A DNA stretch of 37,820 nucleotides. Source: an uncultured Chloroflexaceae bacterium. Lineage in GTDB: Bacteria; Chloroflexota; Chloroflexia; Chloroflexales; Chloroflexaceae. Positions 1-24,005 of this stretch are shown here, piece after piece. The notes beneath the pieces were generated by a model that searched no databases, had not been told where the DNA came from, and was given only the letters and a program-made list of their open reading frames with translations. Location: NCBI GenBank assembly GCA_964626155.1, contig CAZVEN010000021.1, positions 15,825 through 53,644 of the forward strand, read 5' to 3'. A program made the position numbers and the translations under genes. The number at the start of each line of letters is the position of its first letter. The first letter of the stretch is position 1.

Positions 1-258
1 CAGGATGCGGGTGCTACGGTACGGGTTTGGCGGTGCCAAACCCACGGGGCTTGCCGCTGGCAAGCCCGTACCATAGCCACACGGGTAGTAGTAGCACCGG
101 TTTCTAGCCGGACTTCGGCAGGATGCGGGTGCTACGGTACGGGTTTGGCGGTGCCAAACCCACGGGGCTTGCCAGCGGCAAGCCCGTACCATAGCCACAC
201 GGGTAGCAGTAGCACCGGCTTCTAGCCGGACTTCGGCAGGATGCGGGTGCTACGCGGG
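1..258. repeat. 118-bp tandem direct repeat, 2 full units (1-118, 119-236) plus an 18-bp partial third unit; the array is cut by the window edge
   Basis: Units 1-118 and 119-236 are near-identical, with 3 differences. Each unit folds as a 10-bp outer stem (13-22/68-77) enclosing two 9-bp hairpins (23-31/35-43 and 47-55/59-67). The second hairpin loop is GCT in unit 1 and AGC in unit 2, an exact loop inversion. Confidence 0.9.
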
Positions 259-1253
259 ACAGGCTAGAAGCCTATCCTACACTTGATGCCGGTGCTACGA
301 AGATATGCACGAGAACCTCATAGCTCCGGTTCGACACCCAAGGCTCGCAACTGTGCTATGAGGCGTTCTTCACGTTCGCATGCACGTTCTTTTTCTTTGC
401 GTTCGCGTTCTTCACGTTCGCTGCTGGTAGGAAGAGGTATGCCCTGCATCGTAAACCAACGTAGCCACGGTAACTGCATACCTTTGTAGGAGCCATGCCA
501 AATGCCTAATGCAACCCCAAGGGGGGGAATGGGATAATGCCCATGCGCATTCGGTGCAACCAACGTGAATTTCCCGTTCTCAAGTACATAGACATCTACC
601 TTACCCGGGTTGACATAGTAGATGGCATAGAACTGGGGTTGGATGACGCGCTCATAGACCCAAAACTTGCCACTTTTGGGTGTGGTATCGTTCTCTTCTG
701 AACCGTCACCCGATACAAATTCACACACGATGAGCGGGCGAGTAGGTTCGTGCCATAGCACATACGAACGTCGTACCTTGCCATGCAGCAAAGGCGGCAC
801 ATTGGGCACATAGTACCAATCGGGCGAGACGGCTCCACGCACCGACTCTTCGTAGGTTGTTTGGACCGCTTCTATGTTCCAATAGATGCCACTATCTTGC
901 CCAATACAGTATTGCCCATCGGGATGGAGTTGGCTCAACACCGGCTCTATACTGTCGGTCAACAAGATACTCTGGGGATGCTCTTGAAAGTTTTTCACAA
1001 AGCTACCATCCTCGTCTGGCAATTGCGTATGGTCGGGGAAACGATAGACCCGCAGGTCGGCAGTTTGTGATTGTATACGATTGGCTACCATAGGATATGT
1101 CCATTCTTTCTGCTTCTATTGCTGTTGCGTACACAACGGTTTCATTCTATGTCCACTATTGTAGCATATATTTGCGCTCGCTGTGTATTTGCTGTAGTGA
1201 ATACTACGAAGAAATGGTGCAAAAGACGTAGCATTAGGCTTCTAGCCTGTCCC
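256..1253. mobile_element. Candidate small mobile cassette: Uma2-family nuclease gene between perfect 19-bp terminal inverted repeats
   Basis: GGGACAGGCTAGAAGCCTA at 256-274 is the exact reverse complement of TAGGCTTCTAGCCTGTCCC at 1235-1253. The only substantial gene inside is the Uma2 CDS 318-1091. Solo related copies lie at 6249-6266 and 32464-32485. Confidence 0.35.
318..1091 (-). CDS. Uma2 family endonuclease (DUF820, PD-(D/E)XK fold) with ER-rich coiled-coil C-terminal tail
   Basis: 257-aa ORF. Motifs RPLIVCEFVS...D...K...YERV.QPQFYAIYYVNP..V.VYVLENGKF fit the Uma2 pattern PDL.VE..S...D...K...Y...GV.EYWIVDP. The tail LRWF..GIPLPT..ERE..ERLIAQLRALGVEPEL is typical of cyanobacterial-type Uma2 proteins. 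Confidence 0.8.
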   Translation of the reverse strand: MVANRIQSQTADLRVYRFPDHTQLPDEDGSFVKNFQEHPQSILLTDSIEPVLSQLHPDGQYCIGQDSGIYWNIEAVQTTYEESVRGAVSPDWYYVPNVPPLLHGKVRRSYVLWHEPTRPLIVCEFVSGDGSEENDTTPKSGKFWVYERVIQPQFYAIYYVNPGKVDVYVLENGKFTLVAPNAHGHYPIPPLGVALGIWHGSYKGMQLPWLRWFTMQGIPLPTSSEREERERKEKERACEREERLIAQLRALGVEPEL

Positions 1254-1960: not shown

Positions 1961-2021
1961 ACCAATGCTTTGCTGGTACGCTGCAATGCTGCGAACTGTC
2001 TTGGAAACGGTTGCTCGTTTC

Positions 2022-2050
2022 GACGCACAACGATGTGCGTCTTTATTTTA
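2022..2050 (+). terminator. intrinsic terminator candidate
   Basis: 8-bp stem GACGCACA/TGTGCGTC (2022-2029/2034-2041) with loop ACGA, followed by TTTATTTTA. It lies downstream of the 1627-1887 CDS and before the 2067 CDS. Confidence 0.5.
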
Positions 2051-2066
2051 GAAGGATTGTTATACT

Positions 2067-2690
2067 ATGCATATCATACTTATTCGCCATGGCATAACGG
2101 AATGGAATGCACAACGACGCTATCAAGGGCATGCCGATATGCCGCTGAATGCCTTGGGGCGAGAACAAGCCCGGCTTGCCGGTGAACGGCTACGCGCAAT
2201 GCAGGGGCTACACATACACGCTATGTACTCCAGCGACACCGCACGGGCTTGGCAAACGGCGCAGATCATCGGCGAGCATGTTGGCATACAGCCACAACCC
2301 ATGCTCGACCTGCGCGAAATAGACGTTGGGCAATGGAGTGGGCTTACAGTTGAGGAGCGCAACCGCCTTTTTCCCGACAGTGTGCGCGACTGCGAACGTG
2401 ACCCCATCAACACGGTGCTACCGGGTGGCGAGTCGCGGGTGCAGTTGCAACAACGTGCGCTACGGGCATTCAACCAGATTATTGAGGCGCATCAGCCAGA
2501 GGAAACAGTACTAGCCGTTTCGCATGCCGGGACTATGCGTACTATTCTGTGCCACTACCTTGGCATGGATTTAGCCTACAATGAGCGGTTGAAGATAAAC
2601 CATTGTTCATTGACCGAGTTGCGCTACAAAAGAGATAATTGGCGTGTGCATCGTGTAAATGATGCTGCGCATATAGAAGCATTGCATTAG
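2067..2690 (+). CDS. histidine phosphatase family protein (phosphoglycerate mutase-like)
   Basis: N-terminal LIRHGITEWN (RHG catalytic motif), 207 aa, a length typical of the family. Confidence 0.85.
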   Translation: MHIILIRHGITEWNAQRRYQGHADMPLNALGREQARLAGERLRAMQGLHIHAMYSSDTARAWQTAQIIGEHVGIQPQPMLDLREIDVGQWSGLTVEERNRLFPDSVRDCERDPINTVLPGGESRVQLQQRALRAFNQIIEAHQPEETVLAVSHAGTMRTILCHYLGMDLAYNERLKINHCSLTELRYKRDNWRVHRVNDAAHIEALH

Positions 2691-2744
2691 GGTTGGTTAG
2701 TTCATTCTCACAAAATGCTAACAAGACAATCCACCCGCTTAAAG

Positions 2745-2790
2745 AACTTCGTGTTTCCTTTGTGTTCTTTGTGTTCTTTGTGGTTCAATG
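2745..2790. repeat. octamer/nonamer-repeat element copy (TGTTCTTTG x3)
   Basis: GTGTTTCCTTTGTGTTCTTTGTGTTCTTTGTGGTTC. It is the reverse-orientation relative of the 22693-22760 copy (CACAGAGAACACAGAG). Confidence 0.6.
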
Positions 2791-2805
2791 TAGTATCTTG
2801 AGATA

Positions 2806-4590
2806 TTGCTTATGAAAAGAGACAAAGGGGTTTCATATAGAGCCGTCAGCTTGATGTTCTGGCTTGCATCTATGCTATTCTTCACACCTTTGGCAACCGC
2901 ACAAGCACAGCAGCAACAGAAAGAGTTCGCCAAAGATGTGCTGCTTGAGCGGCGCGACGGCGACATCACCATTTTGCCCAATGGAGATGTGCAGGTTGTG
3001 GAAACATGGGAAGTGTATTTTATTGGTGGCGTGTTTACCTATGCCTTTCGTGAACTGCCGCATGAGTGTCTCACTGCCACATCGGGGTGGGAAGTGTATG
3101 AAGGAAAACAGGCATATCAGCCGGCTCCCGCGACTGATGCACAACCCGGCACGCCCGGTACATTTCACATACAGACGACTGAAGCTTCGACCAAGGTGAC
3201 ATGGTTTTTCCCTCCAACTACTGATGATACGCGCATGTTTACGCTGAAATATGTCGTGCATGGTTCCCTTGCCATCTATGAGCAGGTAGACCGCCTACGC
3301 TGGCAGTTTATTGAGTGGGAACGTCTCTACCCTATCAATACCGCGCATGTTGTTGTTCATTTGCCAGCATCGTTCGATAGGGATGAGATAACGGTTGCTA
3401 CCTATCGGTATGGGCGTAAAGCCGGTGGAGCAGAGGTTGTTGATGGGCAAACCGTAGCGTTTACCGGGGAAGCATTTTTGCCGGGCGCTCTCTGGGATAT
3501 TGAGGTACAGTTTCCGCATGGTGTTGTAGACGCCGAGCCACAGGCATGGCAGCTACGCCAAGACGCGGAGGAGCAAAAGCGTGCAGCATATGAGGCAGCG
3601 CTTGAAGCGCAACGGCGTTTTTACAATCGCATTGCCGTATCGGTCGCGCTTGCCATATTCCTTGGTGGCTCTGTTGGCATTGCGCTGTTGTGGCATCGGT
3701 ATGTGCGCACTACTGCCCCAGAGCAAGCTCAAGCTTCTGCCTATGTCACCAACCCACCCAAAGACCTGCCACCCAGTATGGCCGGCGTATTGCTCGATGG
3801 CAAAGTAGAAAACCGGCATATTATAGCAACCATGGTAGATTTAGCTCATCGTGGGTTCTTGCGTATTGTAGAGCACAGCAACGATGTACAACACACATTC
3901 ACCTTTGAACGGCTAGAGCAAGATACCAGTCGCCTGCGCACATATGAAAAAAATATCCTGCATGCGCTCTTTGGCACTAGCCAGCAGCGTGACCTTGCGG
4001 CGTTGAGCAAAACCTTTTTTAGCACCATCCCATCACTCAAGCAAGATATGTACAATGAGCTTATACAGCAAGGCTACCTAACAGAGGACCCGGAACACAT
4101 CCGCAATGGCTACACACGCATTGGTATTATAACCATTATCTTGGGTCTCATGAGCAGCGTCGGCGGAGCCAACGTTGATGTATCGCACGCGGCACCATTA
4201 GCCATTACCATTGCACTTGCTATTCTGGCAGTGGGTGTGGGTATTGTCGCTATAAGCCGTATCTTGCAGCAGAAAACAATACAAGGTGACATGACTATTA
4301 CACAGATACGCCGGTTCAAGCGCTATCTCGTCTCCATTGAGCAGTATACGCAGGTTCAAGATGCAGTAGACCAGTTTGACCCCTATTTGCCATATGCCAT
4401 TGCGTTTGGCATTCAGCAGCAATGGGGCGAAACATTTGCGGCTGTCCATACACCGGCCCCCACGTGGTATACGTCGGATTCAGCACCCGCCGGGGCCGAA
4501 CTCGATGCCGTCATCAGAGGTTTTTTTGACATGGTCCGTCAAACGTCGTTGGTCTTCAAGGGGCGATTTGTGAGTTCAGATAGTGTCTAG
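2806..4590 (+). CDS. DUF2207 domain-containing membrane protein
   Basis: 594 aa. It has an N-terminal signal/TM, then an extracytoplasmic domain with ILPNGDVQVVETWEVYF.GG.FTYAFRELP (DUF2207-like), a TM near residue 290, and 2-3 TMs near residue 450 with a YLPYAIAFG C-terminal segment. Confidence 0.7.
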   Translation: MLMKRDKGVSYRAVSLMFWLASMLFFTPLATAQAQQQQKEFAKDVLLERRDGDITILPNGDVQVVETWEVYFIGGVFTYAFRELPHECLTATSGWEVYEGKQAYQPAPATDAQPGTPGTFHIQTTEASTKVTWFFPPTTDDTRMFTLKYVVHGSLAIYEQVDRLRWQFIEWERLYPINTAHVVVHLPASFDRDEITVATYRYGRKAGGAEVVDGQTVAFTGEAFLPGALWDIEVQFPHGVVDAEPQAWQLRQDAEEQKRAAYEAALEAQRRFYNRIAVSVALAIFLGGSVGIALLWHRYVRTTAPEQAQASAYVTNPPKDLPPSMAGVLLDGKVENRHIIATMVDLAHRGFLRIVEHSNDVQHTFTFERLEQDTSRLRTYEKNILHALFGTSQQRDLAALSKTFFSTIPSLKQDMYNELIQQGYLTEDPEHIRNGYTRIGIITIILGLMSSVGGANVDVSHAAPLAITIALAILAVGVGIVAISRILQQKTIQGDMTITQIRRFKRYLVSIEQYTQVQDAVDQFDPYLPYAIAFGIQQQWGETFAAVHTPAPTWYTSDSAPAGAELDAVIRGFFDMVRQTSLVFKGRFVSSDSV

Positions 4591-4598
4591 GGCGTAGG

Positions 4599-6248
4599 AT
4601 GCACACGTTATTGGTGCAAGGGCAACCTATTACAGATGCATGTGTGACAGAGTGGCAGGAAGTTGCATTTTCTTGTGTGCCACCGCACAATTGCACACTG
4701 GCGTTGACGATAGGCGATACATTGCACCCTGTGCTGCTGCAACCATTTTTGCTGCCGGGCGACCCGGCATGGCGCTGGCGCTGGAATCCGCAGAATACTG
4801 TCGGACATGTTGCCTTTACTTTGGCTATAACCGGGCCAGATGGGCACGTTGACTATGAATATGGGCATCTGCATGTTGTGCCACGCAAGATAGACCAAGA
4901 GCAGTATCAGGCTTTGCTTGATGATTTGCAACGGTTCATACGCTTGCTTGTCTTTTCTTTGCCGGGGAGTATGGTAGGGACACGGGAGAGTGATGCACCA
5001 GAAGAAATACCAACTGAATGCAGCATTATAGAGATGTATTATCGCTTCTTGCGAGAGCGTTTGACAACGCTTGAACAGGCAGTACGGCACATTGCTCAAC
5101 ATCCACATACCCAAACCTGTGTAGGCACGAAACGGGAACCGGTGGGACACGCACATGATTTTTCGCAGGTTGGCGAAGATGTTGCGCGTGGGCAGCCGGT
5201 GTACCCATTTCCAATGCATGCGGTACCGCTGTTTCGACAAGCTCAACAACCGCGCAACAACATACACCATCTGCCAGAGGAAGTTCCCCAGAGTGCTATG
5301 CTAGTAGATGTGGATACGTATGAAAACCGGCTGCTCAAGTGGGTGTTGCATGAGCTATGGCACCGCGCACAGGCAATTGCTACGCTGACGTCTCATGAAA
5401 AAGCGTTTTTACCACAGGTGACACAAGGGTACACAGAGGAAATACACCATAGTGTGCAACGGTTGGCGCAGGTGCGTTCGCTGCCGTTGTTGGAAGGGGT
5501 CAAGACGCTTTCTGTTTTCCATGGGGCAACGTACACTATTCGACATAACCCTTCCTATCGTCAAATCTACCGCTTATGGCAAGAGTTACACACTCTGCCC
5601 GCGCTCGATGTTGAGAGCGATATATTCCATGTGCCAGTGCATGAACTACCACAGTTGTATGAAGTGTGGTGTGTGGTGCAGGTGATGGCGGCTTTGCTGG
5701 AGCAACCGGGCGTTCGTGTGCGTACACAGCGTTTTATCGCACAGAAGGATGGGAGTCGCGGGCATACGTTTGGTCTTGTTGAGGATGTTCCATTGCTTAT
5801 GCTCAATTGGCACGATGTGATTATTTGTTTGCGCTATCAGCCACGCTATTACCCGTTGCACAGTGCGCACATTGCACAGTGTGAGGAGCATACAGAGACA
5901 ATAGGCTCTCTCGATTGTCACATGCACAAGCCAGATATTGCTATAGAGATGATGCATCCTGCACAATTGCCGTCTGTGTTGCTGTTTGATGCCAAATATC
6001 GCCTGACGGCCAGTGGGGGCGTGCCAGAAGATGCGCTGGCCGATATGTATACCTACCTTGGGAGTATTGGAACATATCCCGATAAACGTGTTGTGCAACA
6101 AGCTGCGGTGCTCTATCCGGGCGAGAGGGTTGCAGAGCGCTATGCAAGTGGCGTGGGTGTGTTGGGGCTTGTGCCGGGCTGCCGGGCTAGGCTGCGCGAG
6201 TGGGTGGCATTGTGGCTACTAAGAAATGGTGCGAAAGGCGTAGGATAG
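4599..6248 (+). CDS. PD-(D/E)XK nuclease-like protein (McrC/DUF2357-like) of unknown function
   Basis: 549-aa ORF that starts 8 bp after the DUF2207 stop, so the two are probably translationally coupled. The C-terminal region has HKPDIAIEM...LLFDAKYR (D...E.K nuclease core) preceded by LPQLYEVWCVVQVMAAL, which resembles DUF2357/McrC-type nucleases. The last ~30 nt overlap the GGCTTCTAGC repeat element. Confidence 0.55.
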   Translation: MHTLLVQGQPITDACVTEWQEVAFSCVPPHNCTLALTIGDTLHPVLLQPFLLPGDPAWRWRWNPQNTVGHVAFTLAITGPDGHVDYEYGHLHVVPRKIDQEQYQALLDDLQRFIRLLVFSLPGSMVGTRESDAPEEIPTECSIIEMYYRFLRERLTTLEQAVRHIAQHPHTQTCVGTKREPVGHAHDFSQVGEDVARGQPVYPFPMHAVPLFRQAQQPRNNIHHLPEEVPQSAMLVDVDTYENRLLKWVLHELWHRAQAIATLTSHEKAFLPQVTQGYTEEIHHSVQRLAQVRSLPLLEGVKTLSVFHGATYTIRHNPSYRQIYRLWQELHTLPALDVESDIFHVPVHELPQLYEVWCVVQVMAALLEQPGVRVRTQRFIAQKDGSRGHTFGLVEDVPLLMLNWHDVIICLRYQPRYYPLHSAHIAQCEEHTETIGSLDCHMHKPDIAIEMMHPAQLPSVLLFDAKYRLTASGGVPEDALADMYTYLGSIGTYPDKRVVQQAAVLYPGERVAERYASGVGVLGLVPGCRARLREWVALWLLRNGAKGVG

Positions 6249-6300
6249 GCTTCTAGCATGTCCGTCGTAGCACCGATATCCTGTCGGACTTGGCTTACCA
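6216..6300. repeat. solo copy of the GGCTTCTAGCC-core dispersed element
   Basis: AAGAAATGGTGCGAAAGGCGTAGGATAGGCTTCTAGCATGTCC is near-identical to 1208-1253, followed by GTCGTAGCACCGATATCCTGTCGGACTTGGC, which resembles the 3' half of the 118-bp unit. Confidence 0.7.
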
Positions 6301-6817
6301 GCCGGTGCTAGCAAACGTGTTGCTCGTCTTTTCTTTGTCGCATGCTATAATGGGTGTTGGCATGAGTACGATTGAAAACAAAGCTTCGCCGCAGAAGTGG
6401 CGACGAACAGCTTGGCTCCTGATAGGGGGAGTACTCTTGTGTAGCTGGTGTAGCCTGTTGAGCGGCGTCGGTGGCTGGCTTATGGGGTATGATTTGGGCA
6501 AGCGCGAGGCTAAAGCCGCGCTATTGCCAACGACTGGGGTGTTGGTGACACGAGTTGAACACGATGGGCCGGCCGATCAGGCGGGCATTCGGCGTGGCGA
6601 TATGATCATTGGCATGAACGGTATCCCTGTTGATGATGTGGTTGCACTCCAAAATATGTTGATGGACTATGAACCCGGCGATAGTGTGCTTATTACCTAT
6701 CGCCATGACTTGGGCAAACATGCCACCTATGTAGAGCTGGCGCATTTTCCCGATAGCGATAAGCCATATCTCGGTATTTATTACACAGCACGTGCTGAAA
6801 CACCGGCCGATATGTAA
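6290..6817 (+). CDS. membrane-anchored PDZ domain protein
   Basis: PDZ core GVLVTRVEHDGPADQAGIRRGDMIIGMNGIPVDDVVALQNML. The start is uncertain because the first ATG (6290) lies inside the repeat element. An in-frame ATG at 6362 (MSTIENK..KWRR, then a TM) sits just downstream of a TGCTATAAT -10-like box at 6343-6351. Confidence 0.65.
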   Translation: MAYQPVLANVLLVFSLSHAIMGVGMSTIENKASPQKWRRTAWLLIGGVLLCSWCSLLSGVGGWLMGYDLGKREAKAALLPTTGVLVTRVEHDGPADQAGIRRGDMIIGMNGIPVDDVVALQNMLMDYEPGDSVLITYRHDLGKHATYVELAHFPDSDKPYLGIYYTARAETPADM

Positions 6818-6921
6818 TGGTGGTTTGTTCAATGCATCCAAGGAAAAACCCATTATTTTTGTATACCTGTGCCCTAGCGTCATACCGCATGTGCGAGTAC
6901 AATAGTGGAGTTTTCATAGTG

Positions 6922-6930
6922 TGCTATAAT
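6922..6930 (+). promoter_or_regulatory. extended -10 (TGCTATAAT) promoter candidate upstream of glnA
   Basis: TGnTATAAT at 6922-6930, ~60 nt before the glnA start codon. I found no clear -35. Confidence 0.3.
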
Positions 6931-6988
6931 CGTACACGGTGTATTTATACAAGTTTAACTGAAAGATAATAAGAAGGAGGCAGGTTTT

Positions 6989-8410
6989 ATGACAATGGAT
7001 TCAGAAGGCGTGCTTGCATTGATCAAGGAAAAGAATATCCAGATGGTGGATTTTCGCTTTACCGACGTGCCTGGCACATGGCAGCATTTTTCTATGCCAG
7101 TCAGCGCGTTTGAAAAAGATGCCTTTACGGAAGGTCTAGGATTTGATGGTTCATCCATTCGTGGATTCCAGGTGATCAATGAGAGCGATATGCTGGTCGT
7201 GCCAGACGCCAGTACCGCCTTTGTCGATCCGGTCCTTGAGGTTCCAACTGTGACAATGATTTGCGATATTCGTGATCCTATCACCGGGGAACCTTATTCA
7301 CGCGACCCACGCTATATTGCTAAGAAATCCGTCGAGTATTTGAAACAGACGGGCATTGCTGATATAAGCTACTGGGGGCCAGAAGCTGAATTTTTCCTGT
7401 TCAGTAGTGTGAATTATAAGACAGACCCGTACATGTCATTCTATTCGGTAGATAGCGACGAGGGATGGTGGAATAGCGGCAACAATATGGGGATCAACCA
7501 CGGGCAGCAAATACCACCCAAGCGCGGCTACTTCCCATGCCCGCCTACTGACTCACTCCAAGACATACGCAGCAAAATGGTTCAAACGATGCTGTCGGTG
7601 GGCATTGATGTCGAAGTACATCACCATGAAGTGGCCACAGCGGGCCAGGCAGAAATTGATATGCGTTTCGGCCCCATGATTCAAATGGCCGATAACATTA
7701 TCAAGTATAAATATATTGTAAAGAATGTAGCGCGGCTTCATGACCTGACGGCTACCTTTATGCCCAAGCCTCTGTTTGGTGACAACGGTAGCGGTATGCA
7801 TACGCACCAAAGCCTCTGGAAGGGTGACACAAACGTCTTCTATGATGCCAATGGGTATGCACAACTCTCAGAGACAGCACAGCATTATATTGGTGGTTTG
7901 TTGGCCCATGCGCCGGCCTTGCTGGCTTTTGCTGCCCCGACAACCAATTCCTACCGCAGACTTGTGCCGGGCTTTGAAGCCCCGGTGAACCTCGTCTACT
8001 CCAAGCGCAATCGTTCGGCAGCCTGCCGTATTCCCATGTATTCCAATAGCCCCAAAGCCAAGCGTGTCGAGTTTCGATGCCCAGACCCATCGTGCAACCC
8101 CTACCTTGCGTTTGCGGCTATGCTGATGGCTGGACTTGACGGTATTCAGAACAAGATTGATCCAGGCGCTCCGTTGGATAAGGACATTTACGAATTGCCC
8201 CTCGAAGAGTTGGCCAAGATTCGGTCAGTGCCAGGTTCACTTGCAGATGCTCTTGATGCGCTTGAAGATGACAACGAGTTTTTGTTGAAGGGCGACGTGT
8301 TTACGTCAGATATTATTGAAACGTGGCTGAGTTATAAGCGTGAGAATGAAGTTATTCCCTCACAGCTACGCCCAACTCCCTACGAATTTTACCTCTATTA
8401 CGACATTTAA
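6989..8410 (+). CDS. glnA: glutamine synthetase, type I
   Basis: 473 aa with the strong RBS AAGAAGGAGG. The N-terminal beta-grasp and catalytic regions show GSI hallmarks ([34 protein letters not shown]). Confidence 0.97.
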
Positions 8411-13973: not shown

Positions 13974-14024
13974 ACGGCACGGCTATGTGGCTTAATGAAA
14001 AAAGAGAAACATGGAGAAATACTC

Positions 14025-15236
14025 ATGCACATACGCTTTGTGCTCATATACTGTCTATTGATAGTCGGCATCGCCATAGCCGGCTGTGGACCAGCATCGC
14101 AAACAAACGACGCCCAAACCCACGACGCTTCGCCACAGCCAGCCGCTGAGAGTACATCTCAGCCATCTACCCATGTCGCAACAACCTCAAATGTTACATC
14201 TACCATTGATGGTGATAATGACGATAATATGCCTGTTGACGCCTTGCTTTCCACACCAACACACACAGCAACAGTGACAGAGAACCTAACGCCAACCACG
14301 ACCATGACTATCACCCCAACCCAAATGCCTACTCCCACACCTGCCTACACATTTGGAGAGGAAATCGTCACATTGAGCGGCCACGCCGGAGGGTTGTGGG
14401 CCGTTGCATTAAGTCCTGATGAAACCCTCCTTGCCACCGCTTCAGCCGATGGCACAGCCAAGCTCTGGGATATGGCCACCTTTCAAGAAGTGTACACATT
14501 GCAAGGGCATAGCGCCGCTGTGCGCTCAGTCGCATTTAGCCCCGATGGTACGCTCATCGCCACCGGTTCAGCAGATACCACCATAAAGCTATGGCAACGC
14601 GATACGGGCGAAGAAATAGCCACCCTCAGCGGTGGGCACACCGATGAAGTTGCAGCAGTCGCATTCAGCCCCGATGGGACCCTCCTCGCCAGCGGTTCAA
14701 AGGATGCCAACCTATGCCTATGGGATGTGGAGAGCATGATGCTTGTAGATACCCTCACTGGACATGAAAACTGGATTGAGGGCATCGCGTGGAGTCCGGG
14801 CGGCACACTGTTGGCAAGCGGCTCACTCGATGAAACAGTACGCTTGTGGGATGTAGAGCGTAGAGAGAATATCGCCATATTATATGGGCATACGCATTGG
14901 GTCTTACCTGTTACGTTTAGCCCCGATGGGTCGCTCATAGCCAGTGGTGCCAACGATGCCACGGTGCGTATCTGGTCTGTGGCCACAGGCGAACATGAGC
15001 GCGTGCTAGAAGGGCACACCAACGAAGTGCGCTCAGTCGCCTTTAGCCCCGAGGGGGAGATACTAGCCAGTGGTTCCGAGGATGAGACCGTCATACTATG
15101 GCGCGTATCCGATGGCGAAGAGATTGCACGGCTACAACCCGGCTCCTCGGCCGCATGGGTGCTCTTCAACGCCGATGGCTCTATACTCTTTACCGCATTG
15201 GGCAATGGGCTACTCAAAGTGTGGTATGTCGGGTGA
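14025..15236 (+). CDS. WD40-repeat lipoprotein (7-bladed beta-propeller) with Thr/Pro-rich linker
   Basis: Signal peptide MHIRFVLIYCLLIVGIAIAGC with a lipobox, then a T/P-rich linker, then 7 WD repeats (GH...WD/WS pattern). The ORF track starts at 13995; 14025 has a GGAG RBS. Confidence 0.9.
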   Translation: MHIRFVLIYCLLIVGIAIAGCGPASQTNDAQTHDASPQPAAESTSQPSTHVATTSNVTSTIDGDNDDNMPVDALLSTPTHTATVTENLTPTTTMTITPTQMPTPTPAYTFGEEIVTLSGHAGGLWAVALSPDETLLATASADGTAKLWDMATFQEVYTLQGHSAAVRSVAFSPDGTLIATGSADTTIKLWQRDTGEEIATLSGGHTDEVAAVAFSPDGTLLASGSKDANLCLWDVESMMLVDTLTGHENWIEGIAWSPGGTLLASGSLDETVRLWDVERRENIAILYGHTHWVLPVTFSPDGSLIASGANDATVRIWSVATGEHERVLEGHTNEVRSVAFSPEGEILASGSEDETVILWRVSDGEEIARLQPGSSAAWVLFNADGSILFTALGNGLLKVWYVG

Positions 15237-16362: not shown

Positions 16363-16444
16363 CACTCAATCGCCCCATCGCCCCATCGCTCAATCGCTCA
16401 ATCCCTGACCCCTGACCCCTGACCCCTGACCCCTGACCCCTGTC
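16363..16444. repeat. compound microsatellite: 8-mers (CTCAATCG/CCCCATCG x5), then 7-mer CCCTGAC x5 (+1 degenerate) overlapping the last 18 codons of the NACHT gene
   Basis: Read directly from the sequence. The 7-mer array (16403-16444) encodes ...GVRGQGSGVRGQG on the minus strand. Confidence 0.9.
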
Positions 16445-19400
16445 ACCGCTTGCACAACCGCCCTCACCTGCGCCGGGTACGCCTGTGCCAGCAACTCACA
16501 CATAGCGTAGGCAGACTCGACGGAGTAAGCACAGGGGATGAGCAACTGCTTGAAATGGGACAAATCGCCCGCCTCTAGCAACTCCTCAGCATCAATCGTC
16601 TGTACGGTTTGGAGTGCGGCAGGAAAATCGCCTGCACGTGCTTGGGCTGTGACGATAGCTGACAACGCTTTCACACGTCTTCGCCCATGGTCAATCGTCT
16701 GTGCGGTGTGGAGCGCGGCAGTGGAATAGCCTACACGTGCTTGGGCTGTGACGATAGCTGCCAGTTCCTTCGCACGGTCCCAATCATCATCAATCATCTG
16801 GGCGGTGTGGAGTGCGGCAGAAAAATCGCTTGCCTGTGCTTGGGCTGTGGCGATAGCTTCCAGTACCTTAGCACGCTTTTCCGCATCGTCAATTGTCTGC
16901 GCGGTGTCGAACGCGGCAGTACACGTTTGACGAGCATCATCGTGTAAACCGGCCTGTGCTTGTGCTGTGGCGATGTCTGCCAGTGCCTTAGCACGCTTTT
17001 CCGCATCGTCAATTGTCTGCGCGGTGTCGAACGCGGCAGTACACGTTTGACGAGCATCATCGTGTAAACCGGCCTGTGCTTGTGCTGTGGCGATGTCTGC
17101 CAGTTCCTTAGCACGCTCTTCCGCATCGTCAATCGTCTGTGCTATCTGGAGTGCAACCGCAAACACATGGCGCTCAGCCAGCTTGTCACACAAGTCTGCA
17201 CGTTTGTAATCATCCAGCAATTGTTGTTGCAAGCTGACAAGCATGTGCTCATCAATGCCAGACACAACCGGTAACAACATAACCGCATATTTTGCTTGCT
17301 CAACATCTAGTCGTGGCAACCGCTCCGCCAGCACACGCTCCAGCCTTTTGCGTGCATCGGATTCATGTCCATTGTCATGCAATTCCCATGCCAGCAGTAG
17401 ATACCACAACACTCGCTGCTTGGCATCAACCAAGTCTGCCAATGCCCATGCTCGTTCTATATTGCCTTCGCGTAATGCGTCGAGTGGGCTTTCTTGGGCA
17501 ATATCGTGTGCTTGGTATACGTGTAGCAACAGCATTCGTGCCATAGTGCCGGCGTCGTCACAGGTTGCGGCCCCCTCTAGCGCTACTTGTATAGTGCGTA
17601 GCGGTAGGTTTGGCTCGGTGGGGAAAGCAGTTGCTTGCTCCTGCTGGAAAATCTGATTTTCTGCAAGGTCATAGAGCGTTTGCCAATGCTGTGCTTGCTG
17701 TAGATGTTGGGCATAGTGGCGCAAGGCGTAGCGGCTATGGTGTTCTGTCCAGCGAAGGCAGTAATTTATCAATTCCTCCAGAAAGAGAACAGTTTTCCCT
17801 TTCAATTTGCGTTTTGTTAAATAGTTTTGAAAGCGCGGGTGACACAACGCATAACTACTATGACCTAGTTGTCCTCGGTGTTCTATGACAAAACGGCGCA
17901 CAGGGTCCAGTATTTGATCAAAAAACCATTCCATGTTTGGGTAGAGACGAAAAAGGTCCTCAGATGGCAGTGGACCAAGAGCTACCATCAAAATGCCTAG
18001 CAAGTTACGTATGTCCTCTTCATTCCGCAATGCTTTGCTCACTTGTTGCCACCAACCATCCAGGTAGCTCTCTAGCCCTGCGGGTTGTTGCGCTATCTGG
18101 GCCTCGCTTATGCGCCCATTGGCAATGTCCTTAACCAGATAGCGTACATAGAAGGGGTCGCCTTGCGAGACGCGCAGGATTTGTTGGAGGAAGTGTTCCC
18201 ACCCTAGCCCCCCCTGCGAGAGGGAATCGGGCATCTCCCTTTCGTCGGGGGGGCCGGGGGATGAATCGGGCATCTCCCCCCCGTGTACGGGGGGGACGGG
18301 GGGGGAATCCGCAATGGCTTTAAGCAACAGTTGCTCGATACCCGCTAGGTCAAGCGTTTCTAGGCGTATAGCCAGCACATCGGTTTGCGGCAACCCCAAG
18401 CGCTGTAGGTCGTCGCGCCCGGCCTGCTCGCGGGCCGAGAAGATGATGAACTTGCCCGTTGGTAGCTCACGCGGTATGTGTAGGTCACGGATAAAGTCAT
18501 CCTCGGCTTCGTCTAGCCCATCAATGACGAGTACGAGTGGGCGACCAGCCTGCACCAATGGCATGCGGAGTAGTTTGGCATACAGCGCTTCCAATTGTCC
18601 CGGTTCGTGTTCGGGTGGCAGGGTTGCTTCTATCTGATAGTAACTCAACATTTGTTCACACATTTGGCGCAGGAAATCTACGCGCCGATGCGTATTGTCG
18701 AGGCGGTTGAGGAAATACCAGCAGTAGCGCTCGTGTTCAGGCGCAACCAGGTTGGCTATCAGTGCCGTTTTGCCATAGCCCGATGGGCCGGTGATGAAGA
18801 CGTAGCCACGTGAACGGCTTGCCAAAAAGTTACGGATTTGTGCTAGTTCGTCATCGCGCCCGGCAAACAGCGTGTGGCGCTCGAAATAGTTGGTTTGCCC
18901 TTCGCGCAACTGGGCCAGTGTGGTGCGGCGTTGCGCGAGGAGCATGCCGGCCTGTATGGTGTAGTCGGGCATAGCAAGTCCACGGGTGAGCTTGCCAATC
19001 TCAGTGTGCAACGAATGCATCATGTCTTCAAGGTGTTGTACGCCTGTTTCTGTACGTGTAGCTATTGCCTCGGTGCGTTGGGTTGTTGTGTCAATAAAGG
19101 TGATGGTTTGCTCCATCCGTGTCAGTGTGTCTTTGAGGTGCTGCATGCTCTCGTGCAGAGGTTGCAAAGCTGTGTCTAGGGCGTCGTCGCCCGTGGGGTC
19201 ACGCTGGTTGGCAGGCTGAGTTTGCAATGTTTCTGCCCACTCCTGAAGCCATAGCACAACCTCGCGGATGTCATCAGTCGTTTGGCTTATCTGGCTTATC
19301 TGCACAGTGGTTTTGGCAAGGCTTTGCTGCCATAGCAATTGATATGCCCGCCATGCGCGTGTGCCTTGCTCGCTTGGGTCTTTCAACTCCTCCCGGAAGC

Positions 19401-20019
19401 GCAACATCCACTCATCGTAGAGATACTGGGCAATATGCTCAACTATACCAAGGGGTTGGTTGGTAAAAAAGTCGTCACGCAACTTTTGCACAAAGAGCGT
19501 ATTGGCTGTCGTTTGGGCTTCGTCAATGTGGTTGGCGTTCATTACCTGGGGGAGAATATGCACACAAGCGTGAATCTGGTCATTGAGATGTTCAAGCGTA
19601 ATGAGTTCGTCAGCGGTGCTTTGTGCTTCCTCATGCAGGCGACGCAATTGGTTGTGCAAGCGCGAACGTTGATCGGGGCGGCGCAAGTGGTTTAGCCATT
19701 GAGGTTGTGCCTCGCTCATGTTGAGCACATGGGCTATCGCTTCTGGGGTCGTAGCCCGTTCCAACAAGGTATGCCAATCGCGGTAGATTTGCTTTGCTGC
19801 TGCATTGAAGGCACGTGCGAGTGCTTTGGCAATATCGTGGTTGAGTGCGCCACGCTCGCTGAACCAGCCGGCCCGCCAACGCTGATAGCTCTGCTCGGCA
19901 AGGCTAGAAGCCCAATTCGTACCTACCCCACCAATAGATGCAAGCAGGTATTCAGATGCGCTTTCGGCTGTTTTCAGCCCAACAGTAGCAAGTGCGCCTG
20001 TGAGTATAATTTCGAGCAT
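16390..20019 (-). CDS. NACHT/STAND-family P-loop NTPase (bacterial NLR-like) with uncharacterized ~370-aa helical N-terminal region and C-terminal 40-aa helical repeat array
   Basis: 1209 aa. Walker A GPSGYGKT, Walker B LVLVIDGLDEA, then a helical/WH region, then at least 5 repeats of the form AQTIDDAEKRAKALADIATAQAQAGLHDDARQTCTAAFDT. No recognisable enzymatic motif in residues 1-370. Confidence 0.85.
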   Translation of the reverse strand: MLEIILTGALATVGLKTAESASEYLLASIGGVGTNWASSLAEQSYQRWRAGWFSERGALNHDIAKALARAFNAAAKQIYRDWHTLLERATTPEAIAHVLNMSEAQPQWLNHLRRPDQRSRLHNQLRRLHEEAQSTADELITLEHLNDQIHACVHILPQVMNANHIDEAQTTANTLFVQKLRDDFFTNQPLGIVEHIAQYLYDEWMLRFREELKDPSEQGTRAWRAYQLLWQQSLAKTTVQISQISQTTDDIREVVLWLQEWAETLQTQPANQRDPTGDDALDTALQPLHESMQHLKDTLTRMEQTITFIDTTTQRTEAIATRTETGVQHLEDMMHSLHTEIGKLTRGLAMPDYTIQAGMLLAQRRTTLAQLREGQTNYFERHTLFAGRDDELAQIRNFLASRSRGYVFITGPSGYGKTALIANLVAPEHERYCWYFLNRLDNTHRRVDFLRQMCEQMLSYYQIEATLPPEHEPGQLEALYAKLLRMPLVQAGRPLVLVIDGLDEAEDDFIRDLHIPRELPTGKFIIFSAREQAGRDDLQRLGLPQTDVLAIRLETLDLAGIEQLLLKAIADSPPVPPVHGGEMPDSSPGPPDEREMPDSLSQGGLGWEHFLQQILRVSQGDPFYVRYLVKDIANGRISEAQIAQQPAGLESYLDGWWQQVSKALRNEEDIRNLLGILMVALGPLPSEDLFRLYPNMEWFFDQILDPVRRFVIEHRGQLGHSSYALCHPRFQNYLTKRKLKGKTVLFLEELINYCLRWTEHHSRYALRHYAQHLQQAQHWQTLYDLAENQIFQQEQATAFPTEPNLPLRTIQVALEGAATCDDAGTMARMLLLHVYQAHDIAQESPLDALREGNIERAWALADLVDAKQRVLWYLLLAWELHDNGHESDARKRLERVLAERLPRLDVEQAKYAVMLLPVVSGIDEHMLVSLQQQLLDDYKRADLCDKLAERHVFAVALQIAQTIDDAEERAKELADIATAQAQAGLHDDARQTCTAAFDTAQTIDDAEKRAKALADIATAQAQAGLHDDARQTCTAAFDTAQTIDDAEKRAKVLEAIATAQAQASDFSAALHTAQMIDDDWDRAKELAAIVTAQARVGYSTAALHTAQTIDHGRRRVKALSAIVTAQARAGDFPAALQTVQTIDAEELLEAGDLSHFKQLLIPCAYSVESAYAMCELLAQAYPAQVRAVVQAVTGVRGQGSGVRGQGLSD
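16861..17100. repeat. two near-identical 120-bp direct repeats inside the NACHT gene (40-aa repeat units)
   Basis: 16861-16980 and 16981-17100 differ at one base. Flanking units are diverged copies. Confidence 0.9.
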
Positions 20020-20684: not shown

Positions 20685-21992
20685 CTACCCTCTATTGTTC
20701 TCCTCGTCGCTGCCCCCCGTACCGGGCGCTGGTTGTTGCGGCGGCTGCCCTTGCTGTTGCTGGGGTGGGTAGCCCTGTTGCTGTGGTGGGTAGCCCTGTT
20801 GTGGCGGGTAGCCCTGTTGTGGTGGGTAGCCCTGTTGTGGCGGGTAGCCCTGCTGTTGAGGTGGGTAGCCCTGCTGTGGCGGGTAGCCCTGCTGTGGCGG
20901 ATAGCCCTGTTGTGGCGGGTAGCCTTGCTGTGGCGGGTAGCCCTGTTGTTGAGGTGGATAACCCTGTTGTTGAGGTGGATAACCTTGTTGTTGTGGCGGA
21001 TAGCCCTGCTGTGGCGGGTAGCCCTGTTGTGGCGGGTAGCCCTGCTGTGGCGGATAACCCTGTTGTGGCGGATAGCCCTGTTGTGGCGGGTAGCCCTGTT
21101 GTGGCGGGTAGCCCTGTTGTGGTGGGTAGCCCTGTTGTGGCTGCATAGACTGATTCATCATATTGCCCATACCCATGCCCATAGCCAACCCCATGCCCGC
21201 TTCCATAGGCCCGCCAGCACCACCGGGGTTGGCGGCGGCCACACCCATAGCCTCAGCAGCCTTATAGCGCATATAGTCCGATTGTGTTGCCGCCATCATC
21301 GTTTGCGCCTCTTGGGCCTTCTGCACACGTTCCCACGTTGCTTCGTCTACCGATATTTCCTCTACATAAAAGTCATTTATCTTCAGCCCAATTTCCTCAA
21401 ACAAGCTAGATAGCTTCACCCGCGAAGCCGCATTCAGCTCCTCCGTCAGAGTTTGCAAGTCAATAACCGACGTTTTCTGAGACGTGACAAGCTTGCGCAT
21501 AATAGAAACAATCCTACCGCGCATATACTTCGTCAAATCTCTCGTACTGTAAACCCCTTGCTGTCCCACAATCTCATTAACAAATGAAGCCGGGTCGGCT
21601 ACCTCGCAAGAATAGCCCCCAAAAGCACTCAGTTGTGTCATACCGATAAAAGGTTCTGGGTCTTTGTACATCACCTTGCCCATACCCCACTTACCTTCAA
21701 ATCGTTTTTCCGTATTGACAAACACAACTTCAGCTTGAAACGGCGTCTTGCCACCCGTTACCCACCCAACAATCCCGGCCAGTATGGGAATATTGGCAGT
21801 GCTGATAGTGTGTCGGCCCGGGCCGAGCACATCGCGTGCTTTGCCTTCATAGAAAAAGAGCGCTACCTGCCCCTCACGGACAATAACTTGAGACCCAATG
21901 CGAAAATCGCCGGGCCCATATTCCGGCTCACGGTGAACAATCTCTTCGCCGGAAGAGTCAATAAATTCAACAACATCAATAAATCGTGGCAT
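20685..21992 (-). CDS. SPFH/band-7 domain protein (COG4260-like) with C-terminal 20x QQGYPP low-complexity tail
   Basis: N-terminal [51 protein letters not shown] resembles COG4260 SPFH proteins. Residues ~286-410 are (Q)QQGYPP repeats; there is no C-terminal Zn ribbon. Confidence 0.8.
20757..21147. repeat. 18-bp (occasionally 21-bp) tandem repeat array, ~20 units, encoding QQGYPP
   Basis: GGTGGGTAGCCCTGTTGT variants repeat head to tail. The reverse-strand ORFs 20733-21413 and 20765-21148 are artifacts of this array. Confidence 0.9.
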
Positions 21993-22061
21993 GTACCTTC
22001 CCTTTCATCTTTCATGAGTGCGTTGGGTAAGCTTCTAGCCTACCCACACATAGTGCTTACT

Positions 22062-22556
22062 TTATGCTTGCTTGCCATAGTAGACAAGTGCTTGGCGTTC
22101 ATCAAATTGCTCGTTTAGTCCATCCACGAGCCTTTGCAGTGATGCGATAGCTTCAGCAAAACTATCAGTGCCGAGGTTTTTTTCAGCAAATGCTATTTGT
22201 TCCTGCAATATCGGCACACTGTCTGCTAATTTGGCATCAAATTCATAGATACGGTCCAGGTCGGCTTCGGCTATTTTCACCTCGCTAAACATAGGCGAAT
22301 AGCCTTGCACGGCGCTTTGTAGCCGTGATATAAACCGGTTGAGGGTGCGGTTCACCTCTTCCAATGCAGAGACATAGTGCAGTCCGCCACTATCCATAGC
22401 TTGTTGGGAGAGGCGAGTGATGTTTTTCTGTTCGGCTTCATACTGCTGGCTCAAATGCCTACGCAACACCTCATCGGCATCACGGCGTTTTTCTTTCGAT
22501 GAGTAGCCTTCGTAGCCTGGAATGATACCCATGAGTTTGTTCAGTATATTTCCCAT
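22062..22556 (-). CDS. hypothetical coiled-coil protein (164 aa), probably co-transcribed with the SPFH gene
   Basis: The internal start MGNILNK has a GGAGAC RBS; the ORF track N-extension is rejected. 70-bp gap to the SPFH start on the same strand. Confidence 0.55.
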   Translation of the reverse strand: MGNILNKLMGIIPGYEGYSSKEKRRDADEVLRRHLSQQYEAEQKNITRLSQQAMDSGGLHYVSALEEVNRTLNRFISRLQSAVQGYSPMFSEVKIAEADLDRIYEFDAKLADSVPILQEQIAFAEKNLGTDSFAEAIASLQRLVDGLNEQFDERQALVYYGKQA

Positions 22557-22692
22557 ATGTAAGGGTCTCCTTCTACCAATGACGAATAACACGATAGAGA
22601 GCATAGCACGTCATCAAATACTACAATCATTGTACCTTATTTGCCGTGAAAAACAAAGGGGGGGGATGGAAGTGTTCGTAAACAAGTTTTTA

Positions 22693-22886: not shown

Positions 22887-24005
22887 CTACCCCTCTGCCA
22901 AGGCAGAAATATCAGCAAGAGAAAGACCGGTGATGTCGGCAATGAGCGATGGCTCAAAGCCCTTAGCTTGTAAGTTGCGCACAGTGTTGCGCTGTGTTTC
23001 GCGTGTACGTTCGCGTTCCAAGCGAGCAAGCTCTTCGGCTTCGCGTGTACGTTCGCGTTCCAAGCGAGCAAGCTCTTCGGCTTCGCGTGCGCGTTCATCG
23101 GCTTCGCGTGCGCGTTCGTCGGCTTCATCCAAGCGCTGAACAACATACTCTGCGCGTTCTTCTGCTATGCGGCGAGCTTGCACCATTTCTGTATAATCTA
23201 CAACCTTGTGTCCTTGCTCATGAAACCAGCATATATCATCTTTGCCCAGACCTACATACATTTTAGCGGCTTCAATCCACACACGCCCGTGTGTATCAGG
23301 TTGGCACAAATCATAGAAACCGAGCCTATTCAAGCAATAGACGTATAGCTTAGGAAGGGTACCTTCAGGTGCATCATCATCGGGAAGGTCTAAGACGATA
23401 TAGACAGCAATGCCCGCCTCTGCATAGATTTCCCATTTTGAGCGTAACCCAGGATGTTCCCGTTTTTTGTATTCAAAGAGGCGTAGCTCTTTTTCTGTCA
23501 GCAAAGAAGGGTCCATATCTAAACAGCGTGTTCCGGGCGAGGTAATTTCCAAAACCACTTCTACTTTAGCGCCTTCGTCTTTGACATAAAACGTGCTCCA
23601 GTTGTAATTTTTTGGTCTTTTGATGCCAGAGACCAGAGCAGCATCGGGTGCAACTGGACGTAGACCGGGTAAACCCAAATCTATACGCATTTCTTTTAAG
23701 ACCACCATAGATGGTTTATGTTGGCTAGAGGCCCTCATAGCATTGTACGAATAGGTTTGAGAAATGGTATGGCGATTACGAACAGACACCTCATCCCCCT
23801 CCTCTGGGAACAATACATCCAAGATAGTCAATGGGCGATATTCGCTTATTTCGGTGCCATCGGGAAGCACCCGGGTAGAATAACGCCAGCCAAATTCTTC
23901 TTCCTCTGCTCTTTCTGTTGTTGTTGTTGGTATGAAGGTTCTTTTTTTGGTAAACGGCTTTGTATATTCTAGCACGTCGGTTGTTGTAGGATAGACAAAA
24001 GACAT
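22887..24005 (-). CDS. Uma2 family endonuclease with extended N-terminus and ER-rich coiled-coil C-terminal tail
   Basis: RPVAPDAALVSG...VVLEITSPGTR..D...K...YAEAGIAVYIVLD matches the Uma2 core. The tail carries a perfect 48-bp tandem duplication (EELARLERERTREA x2) and ends in LIADITGLSLADISALAEG. AAGGAGG RBS. Confidence 0.75.
   Translation of the reverse strand: MSFVYPTTTDVLEYTKPFTKKRTFIPTTTTERAEEEEFGWRYSTRVLPDGTEISEYRPLTILDVLFPEEGDEVSVRNRHTISQTYSYNAMRASSQHKPSMVVLKEMRIDLGLPGLRPVAPDAALVSGIKRPKNYNWSTFYVKDEGAKVEVVLEITSPGTRCLDMDPSLLTEKELRLFEYKKREHPGLRSKWEIYAEAGIAVYIVLDLPDDDAPEGTLPKLYVYCLNRLGFYDLCQPDTHGRVWIEAAKMYVGLGKDDICWFHEQGHKVVDYTEMVQARRIAEERAEYVVQRLDEADERAREADERAREAEELARLERERTREAEELARLERERTRETQRNTVRNLQAKGFEPSLIADITGLSLADISALAEG

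Follow-up and report, generated by a model that had tools for sequence, protein, structure and literature searches.

An 8-bp pairing of a DUF2207 membrane protein gene and an McrC-like nuclease gene in a Chloroflexaceae bacterium, probably the product of repeat-mediated rearrangement

In the stretch of Chloroflexaceae DNA analyzed here (37.8 kb, hereafter the window), a gene for a DUF2207-family membrane protein is followed, 8 bp downstream on the same strand, by a gene for an McrC-like protein with a PD-(D/E)XK nuclease domain. An earlier interpretation made from the letters of the DNA (the sequence-only reading) had proposed that the two form a module for abortive infection or DNA processing, with a membrane sensor and a nuclease effector. 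The adjacency, operon and junction evidence argues against such a module. Instead, we favor, with a probability of roughly 0.7, an explanation in which two functionally unrelated resident genes were brought 8 bp apart by a recent rearrangement, mediated by a repeat element, in one lineage.

The open reading frame (ORF) of the DUF2207 gene occupies 2806..4590 (+) and opens at a TTG at 2806, while the database protein P0121 (592 aa) matches a start at the ATG at 2812, giving a gene of 2812..4590. Its stop codon lies at 4588-4590 and the ATG of the nuclease ORF (4599..6248, +; 549 aa) at 4599, so that the 8-bp, same-strand spacing first described is borne out by the coordinates. A gap of this size is ordinary among bacterial genes and is not, by itself, beyond chance. 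The pairing was sought in two collections of loci: 76 nuclease loci from a scan of one genome per species, with neighborhoods of +/-6 kb (+/-8 kb in a few), and 80 metagenomic loci with DUF2207 relatives at 30-39% identity. The DUF2207 profile had no match at the 76 nuclease loci, and the hidden Markov model of the nuclease had none at the 80 DUF2207 loci, 50 of which include at least 1.7 kb of downstream sequence. Adjacency of the two genes was therefore found in 0/76 and 0/80 loci, and neighborhoods inspected one by one were likewise without the pairing.

Relatives of the DUF2207 gene keep other company. The clade usually heads a same-strand operon in the order DUF2207, X, Y and Band_7_1/SPFH, in which X is a Zn-ribbon protein of ~190 aa (found at 43 of the 80 loci), Y a protein of ~188 aa (31 loci) and Band_7_1 a protein of ~354 aa (32 loci). 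The window does not have this contiguous order. Y and Band_7_1 are kept together at 20685-22604 (-), 16 kb from the DUF2207 gene and on the opposite strand, and no X gene was found in the window. Both displaced genes are recognizable by comparison with an operon of the usual type (L008): the Band_7_1/SPFH protein (20685..21992, -; Pfam PF13421) matches its counterpart there at a phmmer E of 1.4e-87, and protein Y (22062..22604, -; 180 aa, no Pfam match) matches at E = 1e-43.

The junction itself carries the marks of the repeat element. It reads GGGCGTAGGAT|G across the spacer and the nuclease start (4590..4601, +), as seen from the string and from comparison with a relative. Several copies of the element have the string GGCGTAGGAT ahead of AGGCTTCTAGC; in the window this string is found twice only, at 4591 and 6237, and at 4591 it constitutes the 8-nt spacer plus the AT of the nuclease start codon. 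No correctly spaced Shine-Dalgarno sequence for the nuclease is present at the window junction. The closest relative (89% amino-acid identity for DUF2207, 77% for the nuclease) is represented by short contigs that end in the repeat, and its flanks differ from those in the window. In one contig (L086) GGGCGTAGGAT+AGGCTTCTCGCCTGTCCCGT, which is element sequence (also given as GGGCGTAGGAT+AGGCTTCTCGC), comes after the DUF2207 stop; in another (L087) ...GGCTTCTAGCCTGTCTTGTAAGGAACCAACT stands before the nuclease ATG, which has its own AAGGA Shine-Dalgarno 9 nt upstream. An independent assembly (L001) carries the same 8-bp junction as the window, so the junction is not an assembly artifact. Because the spacer is repeat-derived and the flanks differ in the relative, the apparent 8-bp coupling is best explained as a recent deletion or recombination in an element-rich spacer.

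The core of the element, GGCTTCTAGC, occurs 10 times in the window when one mismatch is allowed, against 1.6 expected, and belongs to a longer unit of roughly CTAC.AAGAAATGGTGC.AAAG.CGTAG.AT.AGGCTTCTAGC.TGTCC..CGTAGCACCG... One copy (6216..6310, +), matching those at 246-280 (-) and 1204-1252 (+), covers the final ~32 nt of the nuclease ORF and takes up the spacer between this ORF and the next gene, which encodes a PDZ protein; its core begins with the final base of the TAG stop, at 6248. Since the longer unit begins at ~6216, the last ~10 nuclease codons and the stop are element-derived. The claim that the element had overwritten the 3' end of the nuclease gene thus holds for the overlap itself, whereas the suggested alteration of the native C-terminus does not: in an alignment of 35 sequences the protein ends level with its homologues. 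A C-terminus truncated by the element was accordingly rejected, only the last ~10 residues, in a tail that is poorly conserved in the family, being element-encoded. Copies of the element also flank other genes in the window.

Overall, the element was located at window positions 1-330, 1204-1260, 6216-6310 and 19903-19912, at the 3' end of L086 and at both ends of L087/L088, and it is where short-read contigs of both the source organism and its relative break. Within it, a 118-nt stretch is duplicated in tandem at 1-236 (96% identical), and an inverted pair lies at 217 and 272. No Rfam family was found over the window, and the repeat region at 6210-6320 folds no better than shuffled sequence (z = 0.36). 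Upstream of the DUF2207 gene, counterparts of window 1968-2002 and 2775-2809 adjoin in L086, so that a ~775-bp segment (window 2004-2780) with a His_Phos_1 gene at 2067-2690 is absent there. As the flanks are joined directly in L086, the segment was either gained in the window or lost from the relative, and the difference is another sign of local gene-order flux.

We propose a model where the DUF2207 gene would have become detached from its usual operon with the Zn-ribbon protein, Y and Band_7_1/SPFH, and where a deletion in the element-rich spacer would have removed the leader and Shine-Dalgarno sequence of the nuclease gene. Co-transcription of the nuclease with DUF2207 would then probably be a mere by-product of the deletion. 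The competing proposal, that the DUF2207 protein is a membrane sensor and the McrC-like protein a nuclease effector in a two-gene module for abortive infection or DNA processing that stands in for McrB, draws on the tight same-strand spacing with its likely co-transcription, the intact nuclease site, the absence of McrB and a weak, partial PADLOC match of nuclease residues 277-369 to the 855-position profile of candidate family PDC-M26B (E = 1.2e-5). We consider it improbable in view of the missing adjacency in all 76 nuclease and 80 DUF2207 loci, the different conserved operon from which this DUF2207 copy is detached, and a junction that is repeat-derived and different in the nearest relative. 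The gene context is one of housekeeping, a scan of viral contigs for relatives of the nuclease found none, and PADLOC-DB yielded no match for the DUF2207 protein and no significant defense-system match for either component. One could also imagine mobility of the nuclease ORF itself: as a homing-like or selfish gene it would insert into GGCTTCTAGC repeat copies, hence the pieces of the element on either side. The 10-nt direct repeat GGCGTAGGAT (at 4591 and 6237) encloses the ORF in the window, and in the relative the ORF lies between GGCTTCTAGCCTGTC upstream and CTGTCCCGCGTAGCACC downstream. Such mobility is very unlikely because the lineage-specific synteny of the nuclease is stable across 76 species; in addition, its downstream PDZ neighbor is conserved, its dS (synonymous divergence) resembles that of the neighboring gene, its composition is native, viral contigs are without copies and the element flanks other genes of the window as well. 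Rearrangement around two resident genes thus remains our preferred account.

The first gene was correctly described as a DUF2207 membrane protein with an N-terminal anchor, an ectodomain and later transmembrane helices, Pfam and AlphaFold being in agreement. Both family domains are present, DUF2207 N-terminal (PF09972) at 5e-15 and DUF2207_C (PF20990) at 1e-39, together with the membrane topology of the family. The AlphaFold model (pLDDT, the predicted local distance difference test score, of 80) has an N-terminal anchor helix and a beta-sandwich ectodomain at residues 42-235, followed by a transmembrane helix, a cytoplasmic winged-helix-like domain (residues 321-398), two more transmembrane helices and a helical C-terminus. 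The ectodomain gave Foldseek matches to Ost1/ribophorin I, a subunit of the eukaryotic oligosaccharyltransferase (E = 1e-7), as well as to the N-domain of LTA4H and M1 aminopeptidases. The gene is under purifying selection, with a ratio of nonsynonymous to synonymous divergence (dN/dS) of 0.10 and a dS of 0.50 against the close relative, and its GC content at third codon positions (GC3) is native. Two unannotated neighbors of DUF2207 genes, of 560 aa (L009) and 634 aa (L008), were considered as divergent nucleases and rejected for want of similarity; the 634-aa protein is a second DUF2207 paralogue.

For the second gene, Pfam, the alignment and the structural model all uphold its description as a 549-aa McrC/DUF2357-like PD-(D/E)XK protein with an intact D...E.K core. 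Pfam reports DUF2357 (PF09823; E = 3.5e-22), with the whole profile covered by residues 63-327, and PDDEXK_7 (E = 2.4e-18); NCBIfam added nothing beyond Pfam for either protein of the pair. The AlphaFold model (pLDDT 84.6; predicted template modeling score, pTM, 0.71) consists of three parts. Residues 1-95 (4599..4883, +) form an Ig/filamin-like beta-sandwich with a conserved W58-x-W60-x-W62 motif. Residues 97-346 (4887..5636, +) make up the DUF2357, or McrC N-terminal, region, a helical bundle from which a beta-hairpin stalk extends (residues 172-237, with strands at 172-181 and 228-237) whose tip is disordered or of low confidence. Residues 347-549 (5637..6248, +, with the stop codon at 6246-6248) adopt the alpha/beta fold of a PD-(D/E)xK domain, so the predicted nuclease fold is present in the model. 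An N-terminal DUF2357 region and a C-terminal PD-(D/E)xK fold with its catalytic residues, which together define the McrC family, are both found here. When the family alignment was run as a sequence profile against the PDB, only chance matches came back (E about 0.4).

Across the 35 aligned homologues E355, D446, E450 and K466 are invariant and D464 is nearly so. Their codons lie on the + strand at 5661-5663 (E355), 5934-5936 (D446), 5946-5948 (E450), 5988-5990 (D464) and 5994-5996 (K466). E355 is the helix-Glu, and the other four, all within the motif HKPDIAIEM...FDAKYR, constitute the PD...DxK core of a PD-(D/E)xK enzyme. The gene is under purifying selection (dN/dS 0.29 and dS 0.41 against the close relative) and its GC3 is native. 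We infer that the protein would be an active Mg2+-dependent endonuclease. Conservation is uneven along the chain: the stalk at 172-237 shows the lowest conservation and the most indels, with a top-residue frequency of 0.35-0.43 against 0.61 for the nuclease domain, and its poorly conserved tip has 21% gaps in the alignment.

The nuclease belongs to a well-delimited family. Protein searches returned about 107 close homologues at E <= 1e-34, beyond which there is a sharp drop to DUF2357 proteins with E values of 1e-13 or weaker and 22-27% identity; the window's own species is not among the GTDB representatives, in which the best nuclease match stood at 43%. All 76 loci come from Chloroflexales or from metagenome-assembled genomes (MAGs) of unclassified Chloroflexota, the named groups being Chloroflexaceae, Roseiflexaceae, Oscillochloris, Chloroploca, Viridilinea, Kouleothrix and Ca. 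Ribeiella. The window is placed in the same order by its glutamine synthetase, which is 82-83% identical to proteins of Chloroflexaceae MAGs. When neighbors were clustered over the 76 loci, recurrent genes upstream were deoxyhypusine-synthase-like (21), CorA (14) and Amidase_3 (9) genes, and downstream a treble-clef Zn-finger protein, zf_Tbcl (12-13), and H+-PPase (11). These neighbor sets amount to clade-specific synteny with ordinary housekeeping genes, stable and outside islands. In five Chloroflexaceae loci (L010, L014, L018, L079 and L085) the nuclease is followed directly by an orthologue of the window's PDZ gene (179-221 bits), and this gene is the ancestral syntenic downstream neighbor. 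In JGI/IMG many clade members are labeled 'large subunit ribosomal protein MRP49', clearly an error of automated naming.

The absence of an McrB-type partner, claimed from the outset, was confirmed and extends well beyond the window. No McrB or AAA_5 protein was found in the 37.8 kb by Pfam scans of large ORFs or by phmmer and jackhmmer searches with three McrBs, drawn from two out-group loci, against the six-frame translation, and phmmer and jackhmmer found no McrB within 6 kb at the 76 loci. As a positive control, the McrB queries recovered L089 and L090, and the nearest out-group relatives of the nuclease (P0110 and P0119) lie directly downstream of AAA_5 McrB GTPases. Given the clade-wide synteny and the blanks with McrB queries, we conclude that these orphan McrC homologues form a discrete clade with vertical inheritance: roughly 100 proteins from at least 76 species, catalytically intact and never linked to McrB. 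The McrC protein of E. coli shows no activity unless McrB is present (Bell et al. 2024, eLife, PMC11090510). With McrC thought inert without McrB, an order-wide orphan clade under purifying selection suggests either a trans-encoded partner or a use that is independent of McrB.

An unlinked McrB is the main rival to an McrB-independent enzyme. On this account the Type IV restriction system would be a split one, the nuclease being an McrBC-type subunit whose partner, an McrB-like AAA+ GTPase or a different NTPase, is encoded at another place in the genome. The DUF2357 region is kept and folds confidently in the model, the E. coli protein needs McrB and the nearest out-group relatives are McrB-linked, all of which fit; even so, we regard the split system as unlikely, because McrB is missing within 6 kb in 76 species and from the window, because McrB and McrC are almost always operonic (PMC11090510), and because the synteny is stable and not that of an island. 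The stalk also speaks against it. DUF2357 serves to dock into and activate McrB (Bell et al. 2024, PMC11090510), its hairpin stalk entering the McrB ring, and in this clade the stalk is the region least conserved and richest in indels. Such variability fits a lost McrB interaction and therefore favors an enzyme that is McrB-independent, or at least not operon-linked. If the McrB-docking stalk is under relaxed constraint, the nuclease probably acts without a cis-encoded translocase, and recognition of the substrate or self-assembly would fall to the conserved Ig-like and helical domains. It is tempting to speculate, and we do so tentatively, that the Chloroflexales-wide orphan clade represents a domesticated McrC without McrB, a stand-alone chromosomal endonuclease with a housekeeping or constitutive role.

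Several points weigh against our interpretation. An McrB-like partner may lie beyond the +/-6 kb covered at the loci (+/-8 kb in a few, 37.8 kb here). Both contigs of the relative end in the repeat; the DUF2207 and nuclease genes may adjoin there with a longer spacer, in which case the pairing may extend to the whole genus. A new regulatory link could have arisen from co-transcription in the window, and the endonuclease activity of clade members is a prediction. Finally, at three loci in two genomes the nuclease is preceded, on its own strand, by a Band_7_1 gene, directly upstream in L006/L022 (the same chromosome) and 1.3 kb away in L067, which is a weak hint of a recurrent link between the nuclease and SPFH neighborhoods. 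With three loci and two genomes only, this link was not adopted.

Some nuclease neighborhoods have features of their own. At 12-13 loci (including L006, L025, L027, L030, L042, L045, L049, L070 and L074), mostly from Roseiflexaceae and Kouleothrix-like genomes, the nuclease gene is closely followed, in the same orientation, by a gene for a protein of about 150-196 aa with zf_Tbcl and zf_Tbcl_2 domains. This treble-clef zinc-finger protein, absent from the window, could be a lineage-specific partner of the nuclease. In one Chloroflexaceae lineage (L002/L003, 7547-15325), the nuclease orthologue borders a stretch resembling a defense island, with a Septu-like AAA_15/AAA_21 ATPase and HNH gene, a KAP NTPase and a NACHT/FGE-sulfatase protein; in the syntenic relative L004, an IS1 transposase and NACHT genes replace it. 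The metagenomic contig L089 (3412-13140) has two tandem McrBC-type pairs, MrcB_N-AAA_5 with DUF2357/PDDEXK_7 and AAA_5/McrB_lid with PF10117 McrBC, between which lie HNH and MazG-like genes.

Pfam scans of large ORFs across the entire window revealed mostly housekeeping and signaling genes: a histidine phosphatase, a PDZ protein, glutamine synthetase, a mannose-6-P isomerase-like protein, an acyltransferase and an aldo-keto reductase, as well as WD40, STAND NTPase, Band_7_1, Uma2, VWA and two-component system genes. The PDZ gene following the nuclease (6350..6817, +, in an ORF that opens at a TTG at 6290) encodes a small transmembrane protein with Pfam matches to PDZ_2, PDZ_6 and PDZ. Two Uma2-family genes, putatively restriction-endonuclease-like, lie at 318-1091 (-) and 22887-24005 (-), and neither adjoins the DUF2207/nuclease pair. 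Also away from the pair are a 1209-aa STAND (AAA_16/NACHT) NTPase at 16390-20019 (-) and a WD40 protein at 13995-15236 (+); this content of Uma2, STAND NTPase and WD40 genes is consistent with filamentous Chloroflexota. A promoter and terminator scan of 2000-7000 gave chance-level results only.

In a broader context, tight spacing of two genes in a single genome, above all when it is made by a repeat, is no evidence of a functional module. For the nuclease, either outcome, a split system or an McrB-independent McrC scaffold, would extend knowledge of Type IV restriction components. A domesticated McrC, if such it is, could serve, for instance, DNA repair or recombination, or self/non-self surveillance, in these filamentous bacteria, with DUF2357 repurposed for self-assembly or substrate binding. 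The orphan clade appears to be undescribed as a clade: our literature search on orphan McrC found nothing relevant beyond Bell et al. 2024 (PMC11090510), in which only manually validated orphans were kept and Chloroflexi are unmentioned. The operon of DUF2207, Zn-ribbon protein, Y and SPFH protein provides the poorly understood DUF2207 family with a testable context in membrane stress or membrane organization.

Among known systems, that operon resembles B. subtilis pspA-ydjGHI, which encodes the Zn-ribbon membrane protein YdjG, the membrane protein YdjH and YdjI, a Band-7 protein that tethers PspA; the DUF2207-clade operon likewise has a Zn-ribbon protein, a small protein and Band_7_1. It differs in that the window has no nearby PspA, and X and Y are likened to YdjG and YdjH by operon resemblance. 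Loss of SMU.243, a DUF2207 protein of S. mutans, lowers stress tolerance. By analogy, the DUF2207 operon is probably a membrane-stress or membrane-organization module. The nuclease, for its part, stands apart from McrBC Type IV systems, which have an operonic McrB-type AAA_5 GTPase and cleave modified DNA in a GTP-dependent manner: McrB is absent from the window and the 76 related loci, the stalk is poorly conserved and the setting is housekeeping synteny rather than a defense island. Compared with E. coli K-12 McrC (PDB 6HZ4), it has an extra Ig-like domain at the N-terminus. It shares this domain with the IG-DUF2357-PD-(D/E)xK McrC homologues that accompany NxD-clade McrB, among them CnuC of the CoCoNuT systems (PMC11090510). 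Judged by the model and Pfam, it falls outside CoCoNuT, which is marked by coiled-coil insertions, a CSD and an NxD McrB partner, as it has no CnuB/McrB partner, coiled-coil or CSD insertion, or zinc ribbon. A further difference from the McrC homologues that accompany NxD-clade McrB, CnuC included, is that its nuclease site is not inactivated.

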